Shown: positions 8,143 to 15,184 of the stretch, piece after piece | How the letters are laid out: the number at the start of each line of letters is the position of its first letter | How positions within the stretch are numbered: the first letter of the stretch is position 1 | NCBI GenBank assembly: GCA_031413835.1 | Contig: JANOFW010000493.1 | Coordinates: forward strand, 1-32,087 | Length of the DNA stretch: 32,087 nt | Direction: 5' to 3' | Source: Planctomycetia bacterium | GTDB lineage: Bacteria; Planctomycetota; PLA2; JAEUHO01 | The notes under the pieces: model-generated | Seen by the model: only the letters and a program-made list of their open reading frames with translations | Database searches by the model: none | Told to the model about the DNA's origin: nothing | Made by a program: the position numbers and the translations under genes

Positions 8143-8895
8143 CTAGCGGAAGAGACGGACGTAGGCGAGGCCCAGGTCCATGGCGATCCGGCCGAGCGGC
8201 AGCAGGATCACCGCGCCGAAGAGCGCCGCCAGGAACCAGGGCTGGGCCTCCGGCAGGTAGCGCAGCCGGTCGAAGCGCGGCGAGAAGTCGCCCACGATGG
8301 CCGCGCCGTCCAGCGGCGGGATGGGCAGCATGTTGAAGAGGAACAGGATCAGGTTCAGGCCGCCGAGGATGGACAGGAAGCGGAAGAGGTTGTTGGAGGC
8401 CATCGACTCCGGCGATGCCTGGCGCAGGAGCAGCGCCAGCGCGGTGAGCGCGATGAACGCCAGCAGCAGGTTCACGAGCGGGCCGGCGAAGGCGACGTAG
8501 GCCCGGCCGTGGCGGCCGCGGAAGGCGCTCGGGTTGGTGGGCGTCACGCCCCAGGCGAGCCCGATCAACGCCGCCATGAGCAGGCTGGAGAGTCCCATGT
8601 GCACCATCGGGTCCAGCGTGACGCGCCCCATGAGGCGCGGCGTGTCGTCGCCCTGGCGCAGCGCGGCGAACACGTGCCCCAGCTCGTGGAGCGTCACGCT
8701 CAGCACCACCGAGGCCAGCCAGGAGACGTAGTAGACCGGGTCGGTGGTGAGGTACTGGATGAACACGCCGCGACTCGCTTCCTCTGGGGGCAGGGCCTCG
8801 GGGATCAGGGCCTCGGGGGCCCGGGATTCTCGCAGGGGGGCGGGGGGGGCGGAAGCGGCGCGCCGACGAAAGCGCCCCCGACAACGGGAGGTCAT
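8143..8895 (-). CDS. Site-2 protease family (peptidase M50) membrane metalloprotease
   Basis: HELGH zinc motif inside a TM segment and NMLPIPPLDG (LDG motif), with multiple TM helices. The start is uncertain: ATG 8895 has a C-rich, SD-less leader, and an internal GTG near 8767 is an alternative. Confidence 0.8.
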   Translation of the reverse strand: MTSRCRGRFRRRAASAPPAPLRESRAPEALIPEALPPEEASRGVFIQYLTTDPVYYVSWLASVVLSVTLHELGHVFAALRQGDDTPRLMGRVTLDPMVHMGLSSLLMAALIGLAWGVTPTNPSAFRGRHGRAYVAFAGPLVNLLLAFIALTALALLLRQASPESMASNNLFRFLSILGGLNLILFLFNMLPIPPLDGAAIVGDFSPRFDRLRYLPEAQPWFLAALFGAVILLPLGRIAMDLGLAYVRLFR

Positions 8896-8925
8896 CGGGG
8901 GCGCGGGGGAGCGGGCGGGGAGCGG

Positions 8926-10107
8926 CTAGCGAATGGGCGGTGCCTCGAAATCGAAGCCGGCCTCGTGGGCCTGCTGGCGGACCGCGTCCCGGAGCGCGCG
9001 GTCCAGGCCGTTGGTGTCGCTGAGCTGCTGGCGCTTCATCTCGGCCTCGACGTGCGAGCGGCGCTTGTGGTCGAGATCCTTGACCTGCGCTTGGAGCGCC
9101 GCGCGCTCGCTCTTGCGGGTCTCGAGCCAGGCCTTGCGCTCGGCGGCGGGCACCTTCTGCAGGTCGTCGGGCAGCTCCGCCTCCTTGAGCAGGGCGAGGT
9201 CGAGCGCGGGATCGGCGGCCAGGCGTTCCACGAGGTCGTCGGTCTTGTAGAGGTCCGAGGCCTTGGCGGCGGCGCGCTCGGCGGCGGCGGGGGCGCCGGC
9301 TCCGGCGGCGTTGCCGTCCTGGACCCTCTGGCGCTCCTGCTGCTCGCGGGCCTTGTCGCCCACGAACACGTAGGTGGCGTTGAGCTTGGCGGAGAGCTCG
9401 GCCAGGGGCTGGTCGAAGGGCGTGGCGATGACCACCGTGCCGTGGTTGTGGTCGATGGAGGCGAAGCGCCCCTTGCCCACCAGCGCCAGCTCGCGCCACA
9501 GGGCGGCGTCGCCATCGTCGGGGCCGCCGCAGTAGATGGCGTTGACGACCACGCCCTTGGCGACCGCGTTCTGGGCTTCCAGGCGAAAGGGCTTCTCGCG
9601 GTCCTGGTCGGCCGATTCGTTGCCGGCCACGAACACCATGCGCAAGGCGTTCTCCGGCGTCCACGCCAGGGCGCCGAGCGCGCGGTGGAGCACGCGGCCG
9701 ACGAACTCGTCGCCGCCGTTCGTGCCCAGCTGGAACAGCTTCTCGCTCACCAGGTCGAGGTCCTGGGTGAAGCCGGTGCGCAGCACGACGTGCCCGGGGT
9801 CGTCGCTGCCGGGACTGCCGAAGGTGAGCAGCGCCACGCGCAGCGTGGGGGTGGGCTTGGCCGTGGCCAATTCGCTCACCAGGCTCCAGAGCTTCTGGCG
9901 GGCCGCGTCGATCAGCCCCTGCATGCTGCCCGAGGTGTCCAGGCAGATGGCGAGGTCGATGGTCTTGGGCGCCTCCCGGTGGGGATGCCGCGCCGCGTTC
10001 GGAGCGGCCGTCGGCAGCGGCTCGTCGGCCGGGGCGCGCTCAGCGCCGGGACCGGCGAGGAGGAAGGCGGGGAGCAAGGCGAAGAGGGGCAGGAGGGGGA
10101 CGCGCAT
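8926..10107 (-). CDS. Secreted von Willebrand factor type A (VWA) domain protein with C-terminal coiled-coil region
   Basis: Signal peptide MRVPLLPLFALLPAFLLAGPGA. MIDAS motif DLAICLDTSGSM (DxSxS) plus downstream TNGGDEF and GNESAD. The C-terminus is charged and helical. Confidence 0.8.
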   Translation of the reverse strand: MRVPLLPLFALLPAFLLAGPGAERAPADEPLPTAAPNAARHPHREAPKTIDLAICLDTSGSMQGLIDAARQKLWSLVSELATAKPTPTLRVALLTFGSPGSDDPGHVVLRTGFTQDLDLVSEKLFQLGTNGGDEFVGRVLHRALGALAWTPENALRMVFVAGNESADQDREKPFRLEAQNAVAKGVVVNAIYCGGPDDGDAALWRELALVGKGRFASIDHNHGTVVIATPFDQPLAELSAKLNATYVFVGDKAREQQERQRVQDGNAAGAGAPAAAERAAAKASDLYKTDDLVERLAADPALDLALLKEAELPDDLQKVPAAERKAWLETRKSERAALQAQVKDLDHKRRSHVEAEMKRQQLSDTNGLDRALRDAVRQQAHEAGFDFEAPPIR

Positions 10108-10254
10108 GGCTGGCTCCAGGGACGTGGGGTGCTCGGGGAGGTCGTCGTTCGTCCCCCTATGGACCGCACCCGCCCGTCACGGGTTCGCACAATGCGTGCA
10201 ACGTGGCCGGATCGGCTCGGGAAGGCTGGCGGAGGCCCTTGCTAGGGTGCGTGC

Positions 10255-11454
10255 GTGGCTCCCCCCGCGCCCCCCGATGGATTGGAACGGCTGCACGCCT
10301 ACCGCAGCCGGCCCGAACGCCTGGTCCTGGGCCTGATGTCCGGCATGAGCATGGACGGGCTCGATCTCGCGCTGGTGCGCCTCCGAGGCCGCGCGCCGGG
10401 GCTCGAAGTGACTCTGATGGCGAGCGAGACGCGCCCCTACGACGACGCGCTGCGCGTCCGACTGCGTGCGGCGACATCGGGGGCGGTGGGGGAGGCCGCG
10501 CGGCTCTCGTTCGATCTGGCCGAGCGCTGGGCCGCCGACGTGCTCTCCTTCCTGGCCGCGGCGGGCGTGGCGCGCGAGGAGGTGGACGCCCTCGCCTCGC
10601 ACGGCCAGACGCTGTTTCACCTGCCGCGTGCCGAGAACGGGGGCCGTGCGGTCACGCTGCAGGTGGGCGACGGCGACGTGCTCGCCGAGCGTACCGGGAT
10701 CCTGACGGTCTCCGACTTCCGCCCCCGTGACATCGCCGCCGGGGGCGAGGGCGCGCCCCTGATCCCCTACGCCGACTGGTGCCTGTGGGCCCGCCCCAAC
10801 GAGGTGAGCGCCAGCGTGAACCTGGGCAGCATCGCCAACGTGACGGTCATCACCGAGGATCCCGCCCAGGTGCTCGCCTCCGACGTCGGTCCCGCCAATG
10901 CGCTGATCGATGGGTTCGCGCGCGAGATCCCGGGCGCCCACGGCGGCATCGACCGGGACGGAGCGCTCTCGGCCTTGGGGCAGGTCCACGAAGGGCTGCT
11001 GGCCGCGCTGAGCGACCACGCGCGTGCGTTCCTGGACGCGGCGCCGCCCAAGAGCGCCGGCTTCCAGCACTTCGGCCCCGAGGTCGCGGCCCGTTTCGCA
11101 CGCGCGTTCGCGCAGGTCGCGCCCCACGATCGGGTGCGCACGGCGGTGGAGCTCACGGCCCGCGCGCTGGCGGACGGGCTCACGCGCTTCGTGCGCCCCC
11201 GCTTCCCGCGTCTTGCGCTCGCGCGCTTCTCCGGCGGCGGGACGCGCAACCCGACGTTGATGCGCGCCCTCGCCGCGCGGCTGGCCCCGCTTGCGATCCA
11301 CGTCGAAGCCCTCGAGCCGGCCTTGAGCGACGCCAAGGAGGCCCTCGGCTTCGCGCTGCTCGCCGACGCGACCCTCCGTGGCCTCTCCGCAAACCTTCCT
11401 TCCGCCACCGGCGCGCGTCGCGGCGTGCCGCTCGGCAAGATCAGCGTCCCGTAG
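10255..11454 (+). CDS. anmK: Anhydro-N-acetylmuramic acid kinase
   Basis: LGLMSGMSMDGLDLALV, SHGQTLFH, DFRPRDIAAGGEGAPLIPYADW, DVGPANALID and GGGTRNPTLMRAL are characteristic AnmK motifs. The GTG start is tentative. Confidence 0.85.
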   Translation: MAPPAPPDGLERLHAYRSRPERLVLGLMSGMSMDGLDLALVRLRGRAPGLEVTLMASETRPYDDALRVRLRAATSGAVGEAARLSFDLAERWAADVLSFLAAAGVAREEVDALASHGQTLFHLPRAENGGRAVTLQVGDGDVLAERTGILTVSDFRPRDIAAGGEGAPLIPYADWCLWARPNEVSASVNLGSIANVTVITEDPAQVLASDVGPANALIDGFAREIPGAHGGIDRDGALSALGQVHEGLLAALSDHARAFLDAAPPKSAGFQHFGPEVAARFARAFAQVAPHDRVRTAVELTARALADGLTRFVRPRFPRLALARFSGGGTRNPTLMRALAARLAPLAIHVEALEPALSDAKEALGFALLADATLRGLSANLPSATGARRGVPLGKISVP

Positions 11455-11506
11455 GCGTGGCGGGCGGGGGAGAGCGCAACGAACAGCCGCGCGCTACGCT
11501 GGCGCG

Positions 11507-12037
11507 ATGAAGGTCACCGGCACAGGGGTCGTGGCGATCTGCCTGGCGACGATGGCATCGCTTTGGCTGATCCTGTACCTGCGTGAGAACATCTTCTTCG
11601 AGGACCCTCCCGCGCCGCCGGACTCGCCGGTCGGCACCTTCGAGTTCACCATCGTCGGGGACTGGATACGCGGGGGGCCCCCGGAGCAGGGGACCAACGG
11701 TGCGCAGGAGGCCGACTGGTCCATCGCGCTCGTCGTCCGTCCCGACGGGACCTTCCGCTATACGTGGCAGAGCCTGCGACAGGCTGCCAGCCGTTCGGGA
11801 TCGTTGGAGGGCACGTGGCACGCTGCGAACCAGGGCATCGGTCCGTCCTCGCGGCACTGGCACCTGCGCATCCCCGGTCGGCCCGAGCCGTCGCGGGTCC
11901 GCTCTGGGATCGGCGGCCAAGTCACCGACGAGATCAGCTGGTACCGGGATTCTGGTTGGTGGATCTCGGCCGTCAATCTGCACACGGGCGCCCTTGACAG
12001 TGCCTTCTGGCCGCACAGGCGCGCTCCCAAGCGCTGA
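11507..12037 (+). CDS. Hypothetical membrane-anchored, Trp-rich protein (176 aa)
   Basis: ATG at 11507 is followed by TM anchor VVAICLATMASLWLILYL. Coding-like codon usage, with more A/T at third positions than neighbouring genes. No recognised domain and no clear SD. Confidence 0.5.
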   Translation: MKVTGTGVVAICLATMASLWLILYLRENIFFEDPPAPPDSPVGTFEFTIVGDWIRGGPPEQGTNGAQEADWSIALVVRPDGTFRYTWQSLRQAASRSGSLEGTWHAANQGIGPSSRHWHLRIPGRPEPSRVRSGIGGQVTDEISWYRDSGWWISAVNLHTGALDSAFWPHRRAPKR

Positions 12038-12040
12038 CTC

Positions 12041-12355
12041 GTGCTGGGGCTGACACGGCGCGGGCACGGGGGCGGAGCCCCCACGGCCGCGCTGACGTAT
12101 GCTGGGTCCGTGCGCCGCATCTTCCCCTCCAGCCGCGCTTGGATTGCGGATGTGGTGTGTGGGGTCTTCGGCGGCTACGTAGTTCTGGGCGCCTATGGGA
12201 TTGCTGCGGGCGTGGTCTTCATGGCCGGCACCGGGGAGGTGTTTCGCCGTCGGCGGTTGCGCCGGGAGGCGCAGCTGGGCGAATTGCGCGCGCGACACCG
12301 AGGCGGACTAGCGTCGACACCCGTTAGCCAGGTCGTCGGCGTCCCATCGGAGTAG
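12041..12355 (+). CDS. Possible small membrane protein (104 aa)
   Basis: GTG lies 3 nt after the previous stop. One hydrophobic segment (WIADVVCGVFGGYVVLGAYGIAAGVVFMAG). Its 3' end overlaps the convergent HTH gene by ~30 nt. Weak support. Confidence 0.3.
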   Translation: MLGLTRRGHGGGAPTAALTYAGSVRRIFPSSRAWIADVVCGVFGGYVVLGAYGIAAGVVFMAGTGEVFRRRRLRREAQLGELRARHRGGLASTPVSQVVGVPSE

Positions 12356-12836
12356 GCGGAGTTCCCGGGCTGACGGCGATGCGCTCGGGGCCGCGGAGCA
12401 CCGAGGTCTCGAGGCGGCCCCCCAGGGCCTGGGCGTAGAGGCGCAGGCTCGAGAGCCGAACGTCTGGGCGGCGCTCGAGCTTGGAGAGGTCGGACTGGCT
12501 CATGTCCATGCGTCGAGCCAGCGAGGCCTGCGTGAGGCCCAGGCGCCGCCGTAGCACCGCCAGGCTCAGGACGGGCAGGGTCGGGTCGCAGGCCTCGACC
12601 TCTGTGCGCCGACGGTCGATCCACGTGCGCCAGAGGGCGGAGGTGCCGTACATCGGGAACGCGCCCAGCAGATCGAGCACGCGGTCGGCGAGGGGGCCGT
12701 GCGGGTCCTTGGCCAGGGCGTCCCGAAGGGGACGCCAAAGGCCGAGGTCGCCTCGATCAAGGAGGTCCACGAGGGCGGCGGAGGGCAGGCGTTCGACCGG
12801 CGTGCCGGGGGGGTAGCGGAGGTGACGGTGCTTCAC
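12324..12836 (-). CDS. XRE (Cro/C1-type) helix-turn-helix protein with an unknown N-terminal domain (170 aa)
   Basis: C-terminal LRRRLGLTQASLARRMDMSQSDLSKLERRPD is a typical XRE HTH. The GTG start at 12836 overlaps the stop of the upstream NTase-like gene (GTGA). Confidence 0.65.
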   Translation of the reverse strand: MKHRHLRYPPGTPVERLPSAALVDLLDRGDLGLWRPLRDALAKDPHGPLADRVLDLLGAFPMYGTSALWRTWIDRRRTEVEACDPTLPVLSLAVLRRRLGLTQASLARRMDMSQSDLSKLERRPDVRLSSLRLYAQALGGRLETSVLRGPERIAVSPGTPPTPMGRRRPG

Positions 12837-13525
12837 GGCGCGCTCCCGTCGAAGCGTTCCAAGATCCGGGCGGCAAGGCGGCGGCACGCAGCGACGACCG
12901 CATCCCAGTCTTGCCAGCGCGGCTCCAGATCGCGGTACGCGCGCAGGTCCACCTCCGAAAGGTCGCCCGGCCGCGGTTCGGCGAGCTGGCGAGCCACCTG
13001 CGTGGCCACGCGGCTGCCCCCCGGCCCCCGTTGATCTTGGTAGTAGGCGTCGAGAGCGGCGAGGACCTCGGCAGCGCGCGCTTCGCCCAGCCGGTCGGCC
13101 CGGGCTACCACGTCGAGGTAGTCGCGCGTGGCGTTGCGCATCAGGCACAGCCAGGCCTTGATGCGCGTCATCTCGGCGAGGGTCGGGACGCGCAGAGGCT
13201 TGCCACGGATCGTCACCGTCTCGACCTCGAGCGGCCGGGAGCGGATCAGGTTGCGGATGCCCGTCTCGACGCCGTCCAACGTGCCCAAGATCAAGACCGG
13301 CCGCTTGACGCGAGCGGTGACCCAACCCTGCGTCTCCTCGAGCGCCTGGAGCACGCCGTCGAAGCGCAGGCTCAGGTCCGCGACGGTGTGGTCGTCGTCG
13401 AGCGAGACGCGGTGGCCGGCGTGCAGCGCGGCTGCCGTGCCGCCTACGAGGACCGCGTCGGGCACGAGTTCTTGCAGTCGCGCGGCGGCGCGCAGGATCC
13501 GGTGCAGGGCGGGGCGAGGGGCCAT
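12833..13525 (-). CDS. Nucleotidyltransferase-fold protein, AbiEii/DUF1814-like (230 aa)
   Basis: VLVGGTAAALHAGHRVSLDDDH fits the minimal pol-beta NTase signature (GG[ST]-x10-S-x-D-x-D) seen in AbiEii-type toxins. Clean ATG start at 13525. Confidence 0.6.
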   Translation of the reverse strand: MAPRPALHRILRAAARLQELVPDAVLVGGTAAALHAGHRVSLDDDHTVADLSLRFDGVLQALEETQGWVTARVKRPVLILGTLDGVETGIRNLIRSRPLEVETVTIRGKPLRVPTLAEMTRIKAWLCLMRNATRDYLDVVARADRLGEARAAEVLAALDAYYQDQRGPGGSRVATQVARQLAEPRPGDLSEVDLRAYRDLEPRWQDWDAVVAACRRLAARILERFDGSAP

Positions 13526-13526
13526 G

Positions 13527-13544
13527 TAGTGATTATACTCACTA
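13527..13544 (-). promoter_or_regulatory. Palindromic operator TAGTGA-N6-TCACTA overlapping a TATAAT -10 box, giving a leaderless-type promoter for the NTase/HTH pair
   Basis: The minus strand reads ..aaTAGTGAgTATAATCACTAcATG. TATAAT (13537-13532) ends 6 nt before the ATG and there is no SD. The palindrome arms are perfect 6-mers. The -35 is poor. Confidence 0.45.
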
Positions 13545-13613
13545 TTGGGCCCCGCGCCACCCCGGGTGCGGAGAGGGCCTAGGGGGCGCCCGGGAGCGGC
13601 CGGGCAGGCGGTG

Positions 13614-14645
13614 CTACGCGGACGGCCCCAGCAGGATCGCCAGCGCGCGGCCGTCCTTGGTCTCGAGGAGCAGGGAGCGCACGATCATGGTGAGGGGCAC
13701 GGAGAGGAGCATGCCGACGGGCCCCCAGAGCCAGCCCCAGAGGAGCAGGGAGAGCAGCACGACGAGGGGCGAGAGGCCCAGGCGGCGTCCCATGACCAGG
13801 GGCTCGAGCACGCTCCCCACCAGCTGGCCGATGCCCACCTGCGTGAGCGCCATCACGCCCGCGGCCCCGGCGCCGCGCTCGGCCAGGGTGAGCAGCACGA
13901 TGGGGATGGCCACGATGAAGGAGCCCACGCTGGGCACGAAGTTGAAGAGGAAGGCGAGCAGGCCCCAGAGCAGGGGGTGGCGCACGCCCAGGAGCAGGCA
14001 GGCCAGGGCGACGAGCGCGCCCGCCAGCGCATTCATCACCGTCTTCCAGAAGGCGTAGGCGCTCACGGCCTTGGCCATGCGGGCGTAGAGCGAGAGGTCG
14101 GCGTGCGCGTCGCCCAGCGCCGCGCGCATCTTCCCGGGCAGGTCCTCGGCCTCCACGAGCGCGAAAACGGTGAGCAGCAGGATGACCACGAAGGAGGAGA
14201 GGAGGTCCACCAGCCCCGTCACGGTGCCCGTCAGCAGGTCGAGCAGCATGTTGGGATGGAAGCGCTGCGTCACGGCCTCGGCCGAGGAGTCCCAGCCGAG
14301 CCGTTCCAGGCTGGCGACGGCCTTGCTCGTCAGCCCGTCGATCTCCTGGCGCAGCGTGGGCAGGTCGTTGGCGAAGGTCGTGAGCGAGGAGGTCAGGAGC
14401 GAGGTGAAGACTGCCAGCGTCACGAGCGCCGTCAGGAGGGTCGCGCCTACCGCCACAGGCTTGGGCCAGCCCCAGCCGATCAGGCGCTGCTGAAGCGGCA
14501 GGGCCACCAGCGCGAGGAAGCCGGCGGCCACGATGGGCAGCAGGACCGGGGCCGCGATCTTCAGCCCCGCGGTCACGATCACCACGCCGGCGAGCACCTT
14601 GACGATGCGCGCCGCCGAGCCGTCCTGTTGGCCGTCCGCGCTCAC
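13614..14645 (-). CDS. AI-2E family transporter (PerM/UPF0118)
   Basis: Polytopic membrane protein with the typical GVRHPLLWGLLAFLFNFVPSVGSFI and LVMGRRLGLSPLVVLLSLLLWGWLWGPVGMLLSVPL segments. GTG start. Confidence 0.85.
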   Translation of the reverse strand: MSADGQQDGSAARIVKVLAGVVIVTAGLKIAAPVLLPIVAAGFLALVALPLQQRLIGWGWPKPVAVGATLLTALVTLAVFTSLLTSSLTTFANDLPTLRQEIDGLTSKAVASLERLGWDSSAEAVTQRFHPNMLLDLLTGTVTGLVDLLSSFVVILLLTVFALVEAEDLPGKMRAALGDAHADLSLYARMAKAVSAYAFWKTVMNALAGALVALACLLLGVRHPLLWGLLAFLFNFVPSVGSFIVAIPIVLLTLAERGAGAAGVMALTQVGIGQLVGSVLEPLVMGRRLGLSPLVVLLSLLLWGWLWGPVGMLLSVPLTMIVRSLLLETKDGRALAILLGPSA

Positions 14646-14716
14646 CTGGGCCTCCCGTCGGAGCGTAGCACGCGCTGGTTCCAGGCGGCGGGGGTGGGGT
14701 AGGCCCGCGGTAGGTT

Positions 14717-15184
14717 GTGGGCGTGATCGCTCCCGCGCCTGACGAGGTTCCGCTGGCCGTCGAGGTGCTGCCGCACGGGCAGGGCCTGCCGCTTCCCGCC
14801 TACGCCACGCCGGGCAGCGCCGGCCTGGACCTCGTGGCCGCGTTGACCGGGCCGCTCACGCTGGCTCCCATGGCCCGCACGCTGGTGCCCACGGGCTTGA
14901 AGCTCGCCATCCCCCTGGGCTACGAGGGCCAGGTGCGTCCGCGCAGCGGGCTGGCCTTGAAACACGGGCTCACGATCCCCAACGCGCCTGGCACCATCGA
15001 TAGCGATTACCGCGGCGAGCTGCAGGTGATGCTGGTGAACCTGGGCACGGCGCCGGTGACCATCGAGCGCGGCCAACGCATCGCACAGCTGGTGATCGCG
15101 CCCGTGGTGCGCGCGCGCTTCGTCACGGGCGTGCCGCTCGAGGCCACCGTGCGCGGCGACGGCGGGTTTGGGCACACCGGCTGA
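14717..15184 (+). CDS. dut: dUTP diphosphatase
   Basis: [34 protein letters not shown] and [10 protein letters not shown] are the five dUTPase motifs. Confidence 0.9.

Follow-up and report, generated by a model that had tools for sequence, protein, structure and literature searches.

What kind of system is formed by a nucleotidyltransferase (NTase) gene and a downstream gene for a helix-turn-helix (HTH) protein that lie together behind a palindromic upstream region? The question is raised by a gene pair in a 32,087-nucleotide (nt) stretch of DNA (hereafter the window; contig JANOFW010000493.1 of assembly GCA_031413835.1) from a Planctomycetia bacterium, whose metagenome-assembled genome comprises 3.6 Mb in 510 contigs and is about 90% complete. 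A reading of the sequence alone had proposed that the two genes make up an unusual module of toxin–antitoxin or defence type. The 230-amino-acid (aa) and 170-aa open reading frames (ORFs) that it described, encoded on the minus strand and overlapping at a GTGA, can both be read from the sequence. The evidence set out below makes it probable that the cassette is an autoregulated toxin–antitoxin module of the AbiE/MenAT kind. The window copy is intact, and the cassette differs from the known DUF1814 systems in its gene order, in the domain order of the antitoxin, in the class of the HTH and in the presumed neutralising domain.

The gene 1 protein is predicted to adopt a bi-lobed pol-beta-type NTase fold resembling MenT and JHP933. 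The AlphaFold2 model, built with 49 homologues, has a predicted local distance difference test (pLDDT) score of 87.9 and a predicted template modelling (pTM) score of 0.82. Its top Foldseek matches in the PDB were JHP933 (4ok0, E 1e-5), MenT1 (8an5, 1e-4) and MenT3/TglT (6j7q, 2.6e-4), with a probability of 1.00 and template modelling (TM) scores of ~0.52–0.55. An NTase fold is therefore predicted, as the sequence-only reading had anticipated, and the nearest solved structures are of the MenT/AbiEii type. The minimal NTase signature on which that reading was based is present in the protein (motif VGGTAAALHAGHRVSLDDDH), and Gly28, Gly29, Arg39 and Ser41 are invariant in the alignment of the gene 1 family with the 49 homologues, as are Lys123, Arg130, Asn131, Asp135 and Asp138, while Asp43 and Asp45 are at least 90% conserved. 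Motif I reads R39-V-S41-L-D43-D-D45, conforming to the pattern GG ... R-x-[S/T]-x-D-x-D, and Lys123 is followed at +12 and +15 by Asp135 and Asp138, in the manner of the toxin-specific motifs III and IV. The pattern in MenT1 is made up of Arg37, Thr39 (the phospho-acceptor), Asp41-x-Asp43, Lys137, Asp149 and Asp152 (PMC11375011), and that in MenT3 of Arg76, Ser78 (the phospho-serine), Asp80, Lys189 and Asp211 (PMC7450476; PMC11375011); the MenT1 residues are needed for activity or phosphorylation (PMC11375011; PMC7450476). The spacings of 12 and 15 residues from lysine to aspartate equal those from Lys137 to Asp149 and Asp152 in MenT1, and the latter also equals that from Lys171 to Asp186 in MenT4, the correspondence with the MenT residues being one of motif pattern and not of a printed structural alignment. 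The motifs indicate an intact active site with a conserved candidate phospho-acceptor.

Sequence relationships point in the same direction. More than 4,570 relatives of gene 1 were found among 8,000 candidates scored. Of the 49 aligned homologues, 20 individually match PF08843 (AbiEii), the best with an E value of 1.1e-7; a protein from the P. putida plasmid pKF715A, 52% identical to gene 1, clears the cut-off of 22.5 bits with a score of 31.8, and plasmid homologues carry the RefSeq name ‘AbiEii/AbiGii toxin family protein’. Gene 1 belongs to the same enzyme superfamily as the DUF1814/AbiEii toxins (MenT1-4, AbiEii and JHP933).

The partner is a two-domain protein. Its sole match to a known family is HTH_3 (residues 95–142, E 6e-7), and the ~88 residues before it have no Pfam or NCBIfam family and no fold match in the PDB, in keeping with the unrecognised N-terminal domain and C-terminal HTH of the sequence-only reading. 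In the predicted model (pLDDT 87.8) a flexible N-terminal tail leads into four helices (residues 19–82), an XRE HTH (residues 92–137) and a closing β-hairpin. Only the C-terminal half found structural matches with Foldseek, to HigA3 and HigA2 of M. tuberculosis (6ltz, 6lty and 7ewc; E about 5e-4, 32–33% identity, TM(target) about 0.8). The partner matched XRE-type HTH proteins only, and not those of the COG5340 (AbiEi), COG4861 or MenA1 type; its DNA-binding domain is XRE/HigA-like and, as had been argued, of another class than AbiEi. The N-terminal domain is strongly conserved, with Arg4, His5, Pro18, Asp24, Leu26, Arg28, Gly29, Asp30, Trp34, Pro36, Pro45, Pro61, Tyr63, Gly64, Ser66, Trp69, Arg70 and Arg75 invariant. 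Of the two proteins the enzyme is the more conserved, being 70–77% identical to its best relatives, even though these belong to different phyla, while the figure for the partner is 55–65%.

The pairing itself is widespread. In 80 related loci drawn from species-representative genomes, a gene 2 homologue lies immediately downstream of the NTase gene in 77, in ~11 phyla (Planctomycetota, Acidobacteriota, Actinomycetota, Spirochaetota, Gemmatimonadota, Latescibacterota, Myxococcota, Verrucomicrobiota, Chloroflexota, Dormiibacterota and Pseudomonadota). The check for co-occurrence that had been proposed thus returned the same reversed order throughout these loci, most of which also have a 4-nt overlap (ATGA, GTGA or TTGA); the exceptions include one contig end and one locus whose NTase gene is interrupted by an in-frame stop. 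The GTG is identified as the true start of gene 2 by its homologues, whose first residues are M-x-HRHL. A Shine–Dalgarno-like GGGAG is found 6 nt before this codon, and GGAGG-like sites occupy the same position in many related loci. Some copies look decayed: the partner is truncated to 92–107 aa and lacks the HTH in loci L027, L059 and L060, no partner ORF of at least 90 aa is present in L034 and L056, where a remnant of the N-terminal domain is detectable, and the NTase reading frame of L084 holds an in-frame stop.

On the minus strand gene 1 is preceded by ...CCCAATAGTGAGTATAATCACTAC-ATG, in which no Shine–Dalgarno sequence fits and a TATAAT hexamer stands close to the start codon, both as the sequence-only reading had them. 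The palindrome TAGTGA-N6-TCACTA that surrounds this hexamer is the sole match in the window when up to two mismatches are allowed (0.08 expected) and the sole exact match in the genome. A main clade and a deep actinomycete clade separate on the NTase tree with 98% support, and the two have different palindromes. The upstream consensus of the main clade, aaTAGTGAnTAtAaTCACTAt, holds across phyla, and AGTG-N8-CACT is found in 40 of 61 upstream regions and in none of the 20 of the actinomycete clade; there, TATC-N6-GATA is found at 19 of 20 loci (putative operator sequence TATCAGATCTGATA), and at none of the 61 of the main clade. The recognition helix differs likewise, SQSDLSKLERR in the main clade against TSxSRLSTY in the actinomycete clade, and the N-terminal domain is kept in both. 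An HTH that reads the palindrome would be expected to leave just this pattern, in which the type of palindrome changes with the recognition helix. The palindrome, earlier put forward as a plausible autoregulatory operator, is probably such a site: a conserved, operator-like sequence over the -10 box that co-varies with the HTH. Its 18 bp lie at the centre of a larger, imperfect inverted repeat (13508–13563; 28-nt arms, 75% complementary) that runs into the first codons of gene 1. The possibility that the palindrome is the end of a mobile element was considered and rejected, as there is a single copy, with no other in the genome, and it invariably adjoins the start codon.

The position of the palindrome also bears on the transcript. 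In 34 of 39 loci, 0–7 nt separate the AGTG-N8-CACT core from the start codon that follows, which places the -10 box 4–11 nt before the start codon, a leaderless or near-leaderless geometry. This implies that the gene 1 mRNA would be leaderless or nearly so, as had been suggested for the window copy. A scan for promoters and terminators detected neither a full sigma-70 promoter nor an intrinsic terminator, so that the promoter assignment draws on the perfect -10 box together with the comparative geometry. Tandem double palindromes occur at loci L028, L035, L040, L043, L044, L051, L052, L058 and L063, about half of them from Gemmatimonadota and the rest from Actinomycetota or Myxococcota. Several of these, including the Gemmatimonadota ones, are not leaderless and have a leader of 20–40 nt with a Shine–Dalgarno sequence; given this Gemmatimonadota subclade with a normal leader, leaderlessness would seem to be common and not universal.

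A mechanism can be proposed, in which we only infer that gene 1 is toxic, that tRNA is its target, how it is neutralised, that the partner binds DNA and where transcription starts. Gene 1 would encode an active NTase of the MenT/AbiEii superfamily that, by analogy with MenT1, MenT3 and AbiEii, blocks translation by adding nucleotides to the 3' ends of tRNA. Translational coupling would tie synthesis of the partner to translation of the toxin gene. The partner would bind and neutralise the NTase through its N-terminal domain, which could either obstruct the active site or provoke auto-phosphorylation of the invariant Ser41, the latter by analogy with the unrelated antitoxins MenA1 and MenA3, which induce auto-phosphorylation at Thr39 of MenT1 and Ser78 of MenT3 (PMC11375011). 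A dimer of the HigA-like HTH would sit on the palindrome, covering the -10 box, and shut off the leaderless operon.

Several characterised systems share parts of this arrangement. MenAT1 of Mycobacterium tuberculosis (Rv0078B-Rv0078A) has a DUF1814-superfamily NTase toxin, and MenT1 (8an5/8an4) is among the top fold matches and has the same R-x-[S/T]-x-D-x-D and K-x11-D-x2-D residue patterns, although its similarity in sequence to gene 1 lies below HMMER detection. Its antitoxin is small, even a minimal binding partner being enough to induce auto-phosphorylation. The MenAT1 antitoxin gene is, however, upstream, and MenA1 is related to MazE and has no DNA-binding domain, whereas the partner in the cassette is downstream and consists of an unrelated four-helix domain and an XRE HTH. 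AbiE (Streptococcus agalactiae / Lactococcus) and MenAT3/MenAT4 are, like the cassette, bicistronic, with an NTase toxin and a two-domain partner that combines DNA binding with antitoxicity, and this partner acts on inverted repeats to repress the promoter (PMC7450476). The AbiE antitoxin is encoded first, is of the COG5340 type and carries a winged HTH at its N terminus and its antitoxicity domain at the C terminus; in the cassette, by contrast, the orders of both genes and domains are reversed, the HTH is XRE/HigA-like, the presumed neutralising domain is unclassified, and a promoter predicted to be leaderless carries a candidate operator over its -10 box. Known DUF1814 toxins lie downstream of their antitoxins, which in the characterised cases are of COG5340, COG4861 or MenA1 type (PMC7450476; bioRxiv 10.64898/2026.01.19.700257), while the NTase gene comes first here and in the 77 paired loci. 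JHP933 of Helicobacter pylori, a predicted NTase that forms a toxin–antitoxin-like overlapping pair with JHP932, is the best structural match, though its partner gene is upstream and its identity to gene 1 only 16–17%.

The order, with the toxin-like gene first, is shared with HigBA. The HTH and β-hairpin of the partner superpose on HigA2 and HigA3 of M. tuberculosis, but HigB is a RelE/ParE-type ribonuclease, not an NTase, and HigA lacks the four-helix domain with its HRH tail (the HRH domain). HEPN-MNT (type VII) systems differ in combining a minimal MNT of about 100–140 aa with a HEPN protein that carries R-x4-6-H, gene 1 being 230 aa. No paper on a pair with the NTase first and an XRE partner was found in a literature search that covered few subscription journals.

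The same NTase subfamily has a variant with a small partner on pKF715A of P. putida KF715 (WP_096427036 / WP_096427035). Here the NTase that is 52% identical to gene 1 has a partner homologous to the N-terminal domain (MLHRHL...AAIDDVISRG..DW), but this partner stands alone, lacks an HTH and is encoded upstream. The 75-aa protein, MLHRHLNHQRFTLAAIDDVISRG..DW.., aligns to the profile of the N-terminal domain (hhalign E 4.5e-5), and its gene overlaps the NTase gene by about 29 nt. No TAGTGA palindrome is present in the 140 nt read upstream of the pair. The plasmid is conjugative and of the IncP type, and the pair (L103:2739-3663) is immediately next to an ISL3 transposase gene.

When 1.8 billion representative proteins were searched with the N-terminal domain (residues 1–88), 122 clusters with three architectures were returned: the domain joined to an HTH (150–200 aa), the domain alone (72–110 aa), and three proteins of ~290–300 aa in which it is fused after an NTase-like domain. 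The same domain thus serves the same NTase subfamily in three gene arrangements, which makes the HTH an add-on. A bolder reading, less likely to be true than not, is that the HRH four-helix domain is a previously unrecognised, portable antitoxin module for one large branch of MenT/AbiEii enzymes. Its wiring would take three forms: upstream on its own, joined to the NTase, or downstream in combination with one of at least two interchangeable types of HTH. Neutralisation would come about through induced auto-phosphorylation of the enzyme at the invariant Ser41, and control of the toxin would thereby be coupled to occupancy of an operator over a leaderless -10 box.

A number of observations weigh against a toxin–antitoxin assignment or against details of it. 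Searches with the gene 1 protein came up empty in Pfam, NCBIfam and PADLOC, as did sequence and profile searches of the PDB; it has no PF08843 match at E<=1, and a PF08843 search of its own genome also missed it. When the profile of its family was compared with one canonical AbiEii of the same genome, motif I only was aligned, and not significantly. The TM-scores of the Foldseek matches, at about 0.5, are moderate, and the antibiotic NTases ANT(2'')-Ia and LnuA appear lower in the same list. The DUF1814 protein MenT2 lacks toxicity (PMC7450476), and the fold is for that reason no proof that gene 1 is toxic. Contact between the N-terminal domain and the NTase is something that we infer from gene linkage and the fusions only, and in the fusion proteins (P0272, P0308 and P0335) motif I (GG...RxSxDxD) has degenerated or disappeared, with RNA(T/V/S)RDY kept, which is not expected of a simple fusion of toxin and antitoxin; these proteins may be derivatives that have lost their activity or taken on another role. 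Upstream of gene 1 there is no recognisable -35 box. With regard to defence, there is no PADLOC model match for the NTase and the neighbours are not consistently defence genes, and the cassette was not found in 50,697 phage records, with one distant relative among 2.9 million viral contigs.

Three other explanations were weighed, each with less support than an autoregulated toxin–antitoxin module. The best placed of them, though unlikely, is that the NTase is no toxin and modifies a small molecule, RNA or protein in a housekeeping or resistance role, much as ANT(2'')-Ia or LnuA might, with the HTH protein acting as its dedicated transcriptional repressor, perhaps through a ligand-sensing N-terminal domain. 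The presence of those two enzymes among the fold matches, the example of MenT2, which shows that DUF1814 proteins need not be toxic, and the lack of a defence-island context would all suit such a role, and the N-terminal domain could be a sensor. The best fold matches are nevertheless MenT and JHP933 and not the antibiotic NTases, and the toxin-family-specific K-x11-D-x2-D motifs are kept at the MenT1 spacing. Moreover, the N-terminal domain travels with the NTase without an HTH, alone or fused, which fits a protein partner better than a ligand sensor, and the 4-nt coupling and patchy, plasmid-borne distribution are typical of toxin–antitoxin modules.

That the cassette serves primarily in phage defence, as an abortive-infection system triggered by infection like AbiE, is compatible with the toxin–antitoxin mechanism and differs from it in biological role only. 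AbiEii is an abortive-infection toxin and AbiE is described as a very abundant defence system (PMC11375011), and the distribution of the cassette is patchy and accessory. Such a role is nonetheless improbable given that no PADLOC model matches the NTase and that the flanking genes vary and are mostly housekeeping or other toxin–antitoxin genes.

The NTase gene also comes first in MNT-HEPN pairs, where it overlaps the partner gene that follows. While this order, and an N-terminal domain that is a small helical bundle with invariant Arg4 and His5, would allow the roles to be reversed as in those type VII systems, with the NTase an antitoxin that nucleotidylylates the gene 2 protein and the N-terminal domain toxic, this is the least probable explanation, as the NTase is a 230-aa bi-lobed DUF1814-type enzyme and not a minimal MNT, the N-terminal domain has no HEPN match in Pfam or in the PDB fold search, fusion of a toxin to the repressor HTH of its own operon would be unusual, the N-domain gene of pKF715A is upstream of the NTase gene in the usual position of an antitoxin, and the enzyme is the more conserved partner.

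The genomic setting of the cassette is that of an accessory element. It is present in one copy in the window genome, in 5 of 40 relatives and in neither of the two genomes of the same genus; in both congeners anmK and dut are about 90–110 bp apart, as against about 3.3 kb here. Besides the cassette, the insertion holds two small unassigned ORFs (11507-12037 and 12041-12355) and a gene for a transporter of the AI-2E family (13614-14645). The second of the small ORFs (104 aa, plus strand, no family match) is convergent with gene 2, whose 3' end overlaps the end of this ORF by 32 nt (12324-12355). Scanning the region for Rfam families and tRNAs turned up neither an RNA element nor a tRNA integration site. 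The sequence-only reading had also described a visibly lower GC content, which was not borne out: the module has a GC content of 0.719 against 0.726 for the window, with sliding windows at 0.70–0.75 throughout. GC at third codon positions is slightly lower in the module, at 0.85–0.88 compared with 0.91–0.98 in neighbouring genes. On the other side of anmK lies a second stretch that is absent from the congeners (8771-10295), with a VWA-domain ORF (8926-10107, minus strand); similarity to the congeners jumps from position 10296 to 8770.

Relatives of the cassette are found on eight plasmids of cultured bacteria, and cultured carriers include Pseudonocardia sp. EC080619-01 (plasmid pBCI1-2) and Piscicoccus intestinalis NBRC 104926. 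A fully supported, short-branched clade on the tree mixes Latescibacterota, Verrucomicrobiota and Gemmatimonadota, which suggests transfer between phyla, though the taxonomic labels of assembled bins may be wrong. Flanking genes vary between loci and are mostly housekeeping or other toxin–antitoxin genes; the idea that the cassette has conserved neighbours was dropped, as they differ from locus to locus. A phage origin was likewise rejected on the counts of phage records and viral contigs given above. The same genome has, on contig C309 (L002:1450-2852), a canonical PF08843 AbiEii gene (60 bits) that is followed, and not preceded, by an ORF for a winged-HTH protein (HTH_20/MarR-like) in an overlapping frame, a second NTase-first pair with a different class of partner.

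Table 1. Features of the cassette and its surroundings, in window positions.
Feature	Position	Strand	Remarks
Gene 1, 230-aa MenT/AbiEii-superfamily nucleotidyltransferase, probable toxin	12833..13525	minus	ATG start; ORF and translation
Gene 2, 170-aa partner, probable antitoxin and autorepressor	12324..12836	minus	GTG start
Partner N-terminal domain, residues 1-88, HRH tail and four-helix bundle, no known family	12573..12836	minus	
Partner XRE/Cro-C1 HTH, residues 92-142, HigA2/HigA3-like, then β-hairpin, residues 144-155	12411..12563	minus	
GTGA, gene 1 stop overlapping gene 2 start	12833..12836	minus	Read from sequence
GGGAG, Shine–Dalgarno-like site for gene 2, within the end of gene 1	12843..12847	minus	Read from sequence
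TAGTGA-N6-TCACTA perfect palindrome, probable operator of the partner	13527..13544	strandless	
TATAAT -10 hexamer within the palindrome spacer	13532..13537	minus	Ends 6 nt before gene 1 ATG
Insertion of ~3.3 kb relative to same-genus genomes, between anmK and dut	11446..14750	strandless	

MenT/AbiEii NTases are an actively studied family of toxins that play a part in tuberculosis persistence and abortive phage infection; the antitoxins known for them are diverse, yet all are encoded upstream. To these the cassette adds a very large branch, unnamed in databases, with more than 4,500 sequence clusters among the 8,000 candidates scored and present in at least 11 phyla. It has a reversed gene order and a promoter–operator region conserved almost base for base across phyla, and probably a new neutralising domain and a HigA-type repressor. 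The system is suited to asking whether antitoxin-induced auto-phosphorylation is a general rule for MenT/AbiEii toxins, how one antitoxin domain re-wires into different operon architectures, and how leaderless toxin–antitoxin operons are regulated. Many genes now listed as ‘hypothetical protein’ could gain an annotation from it.

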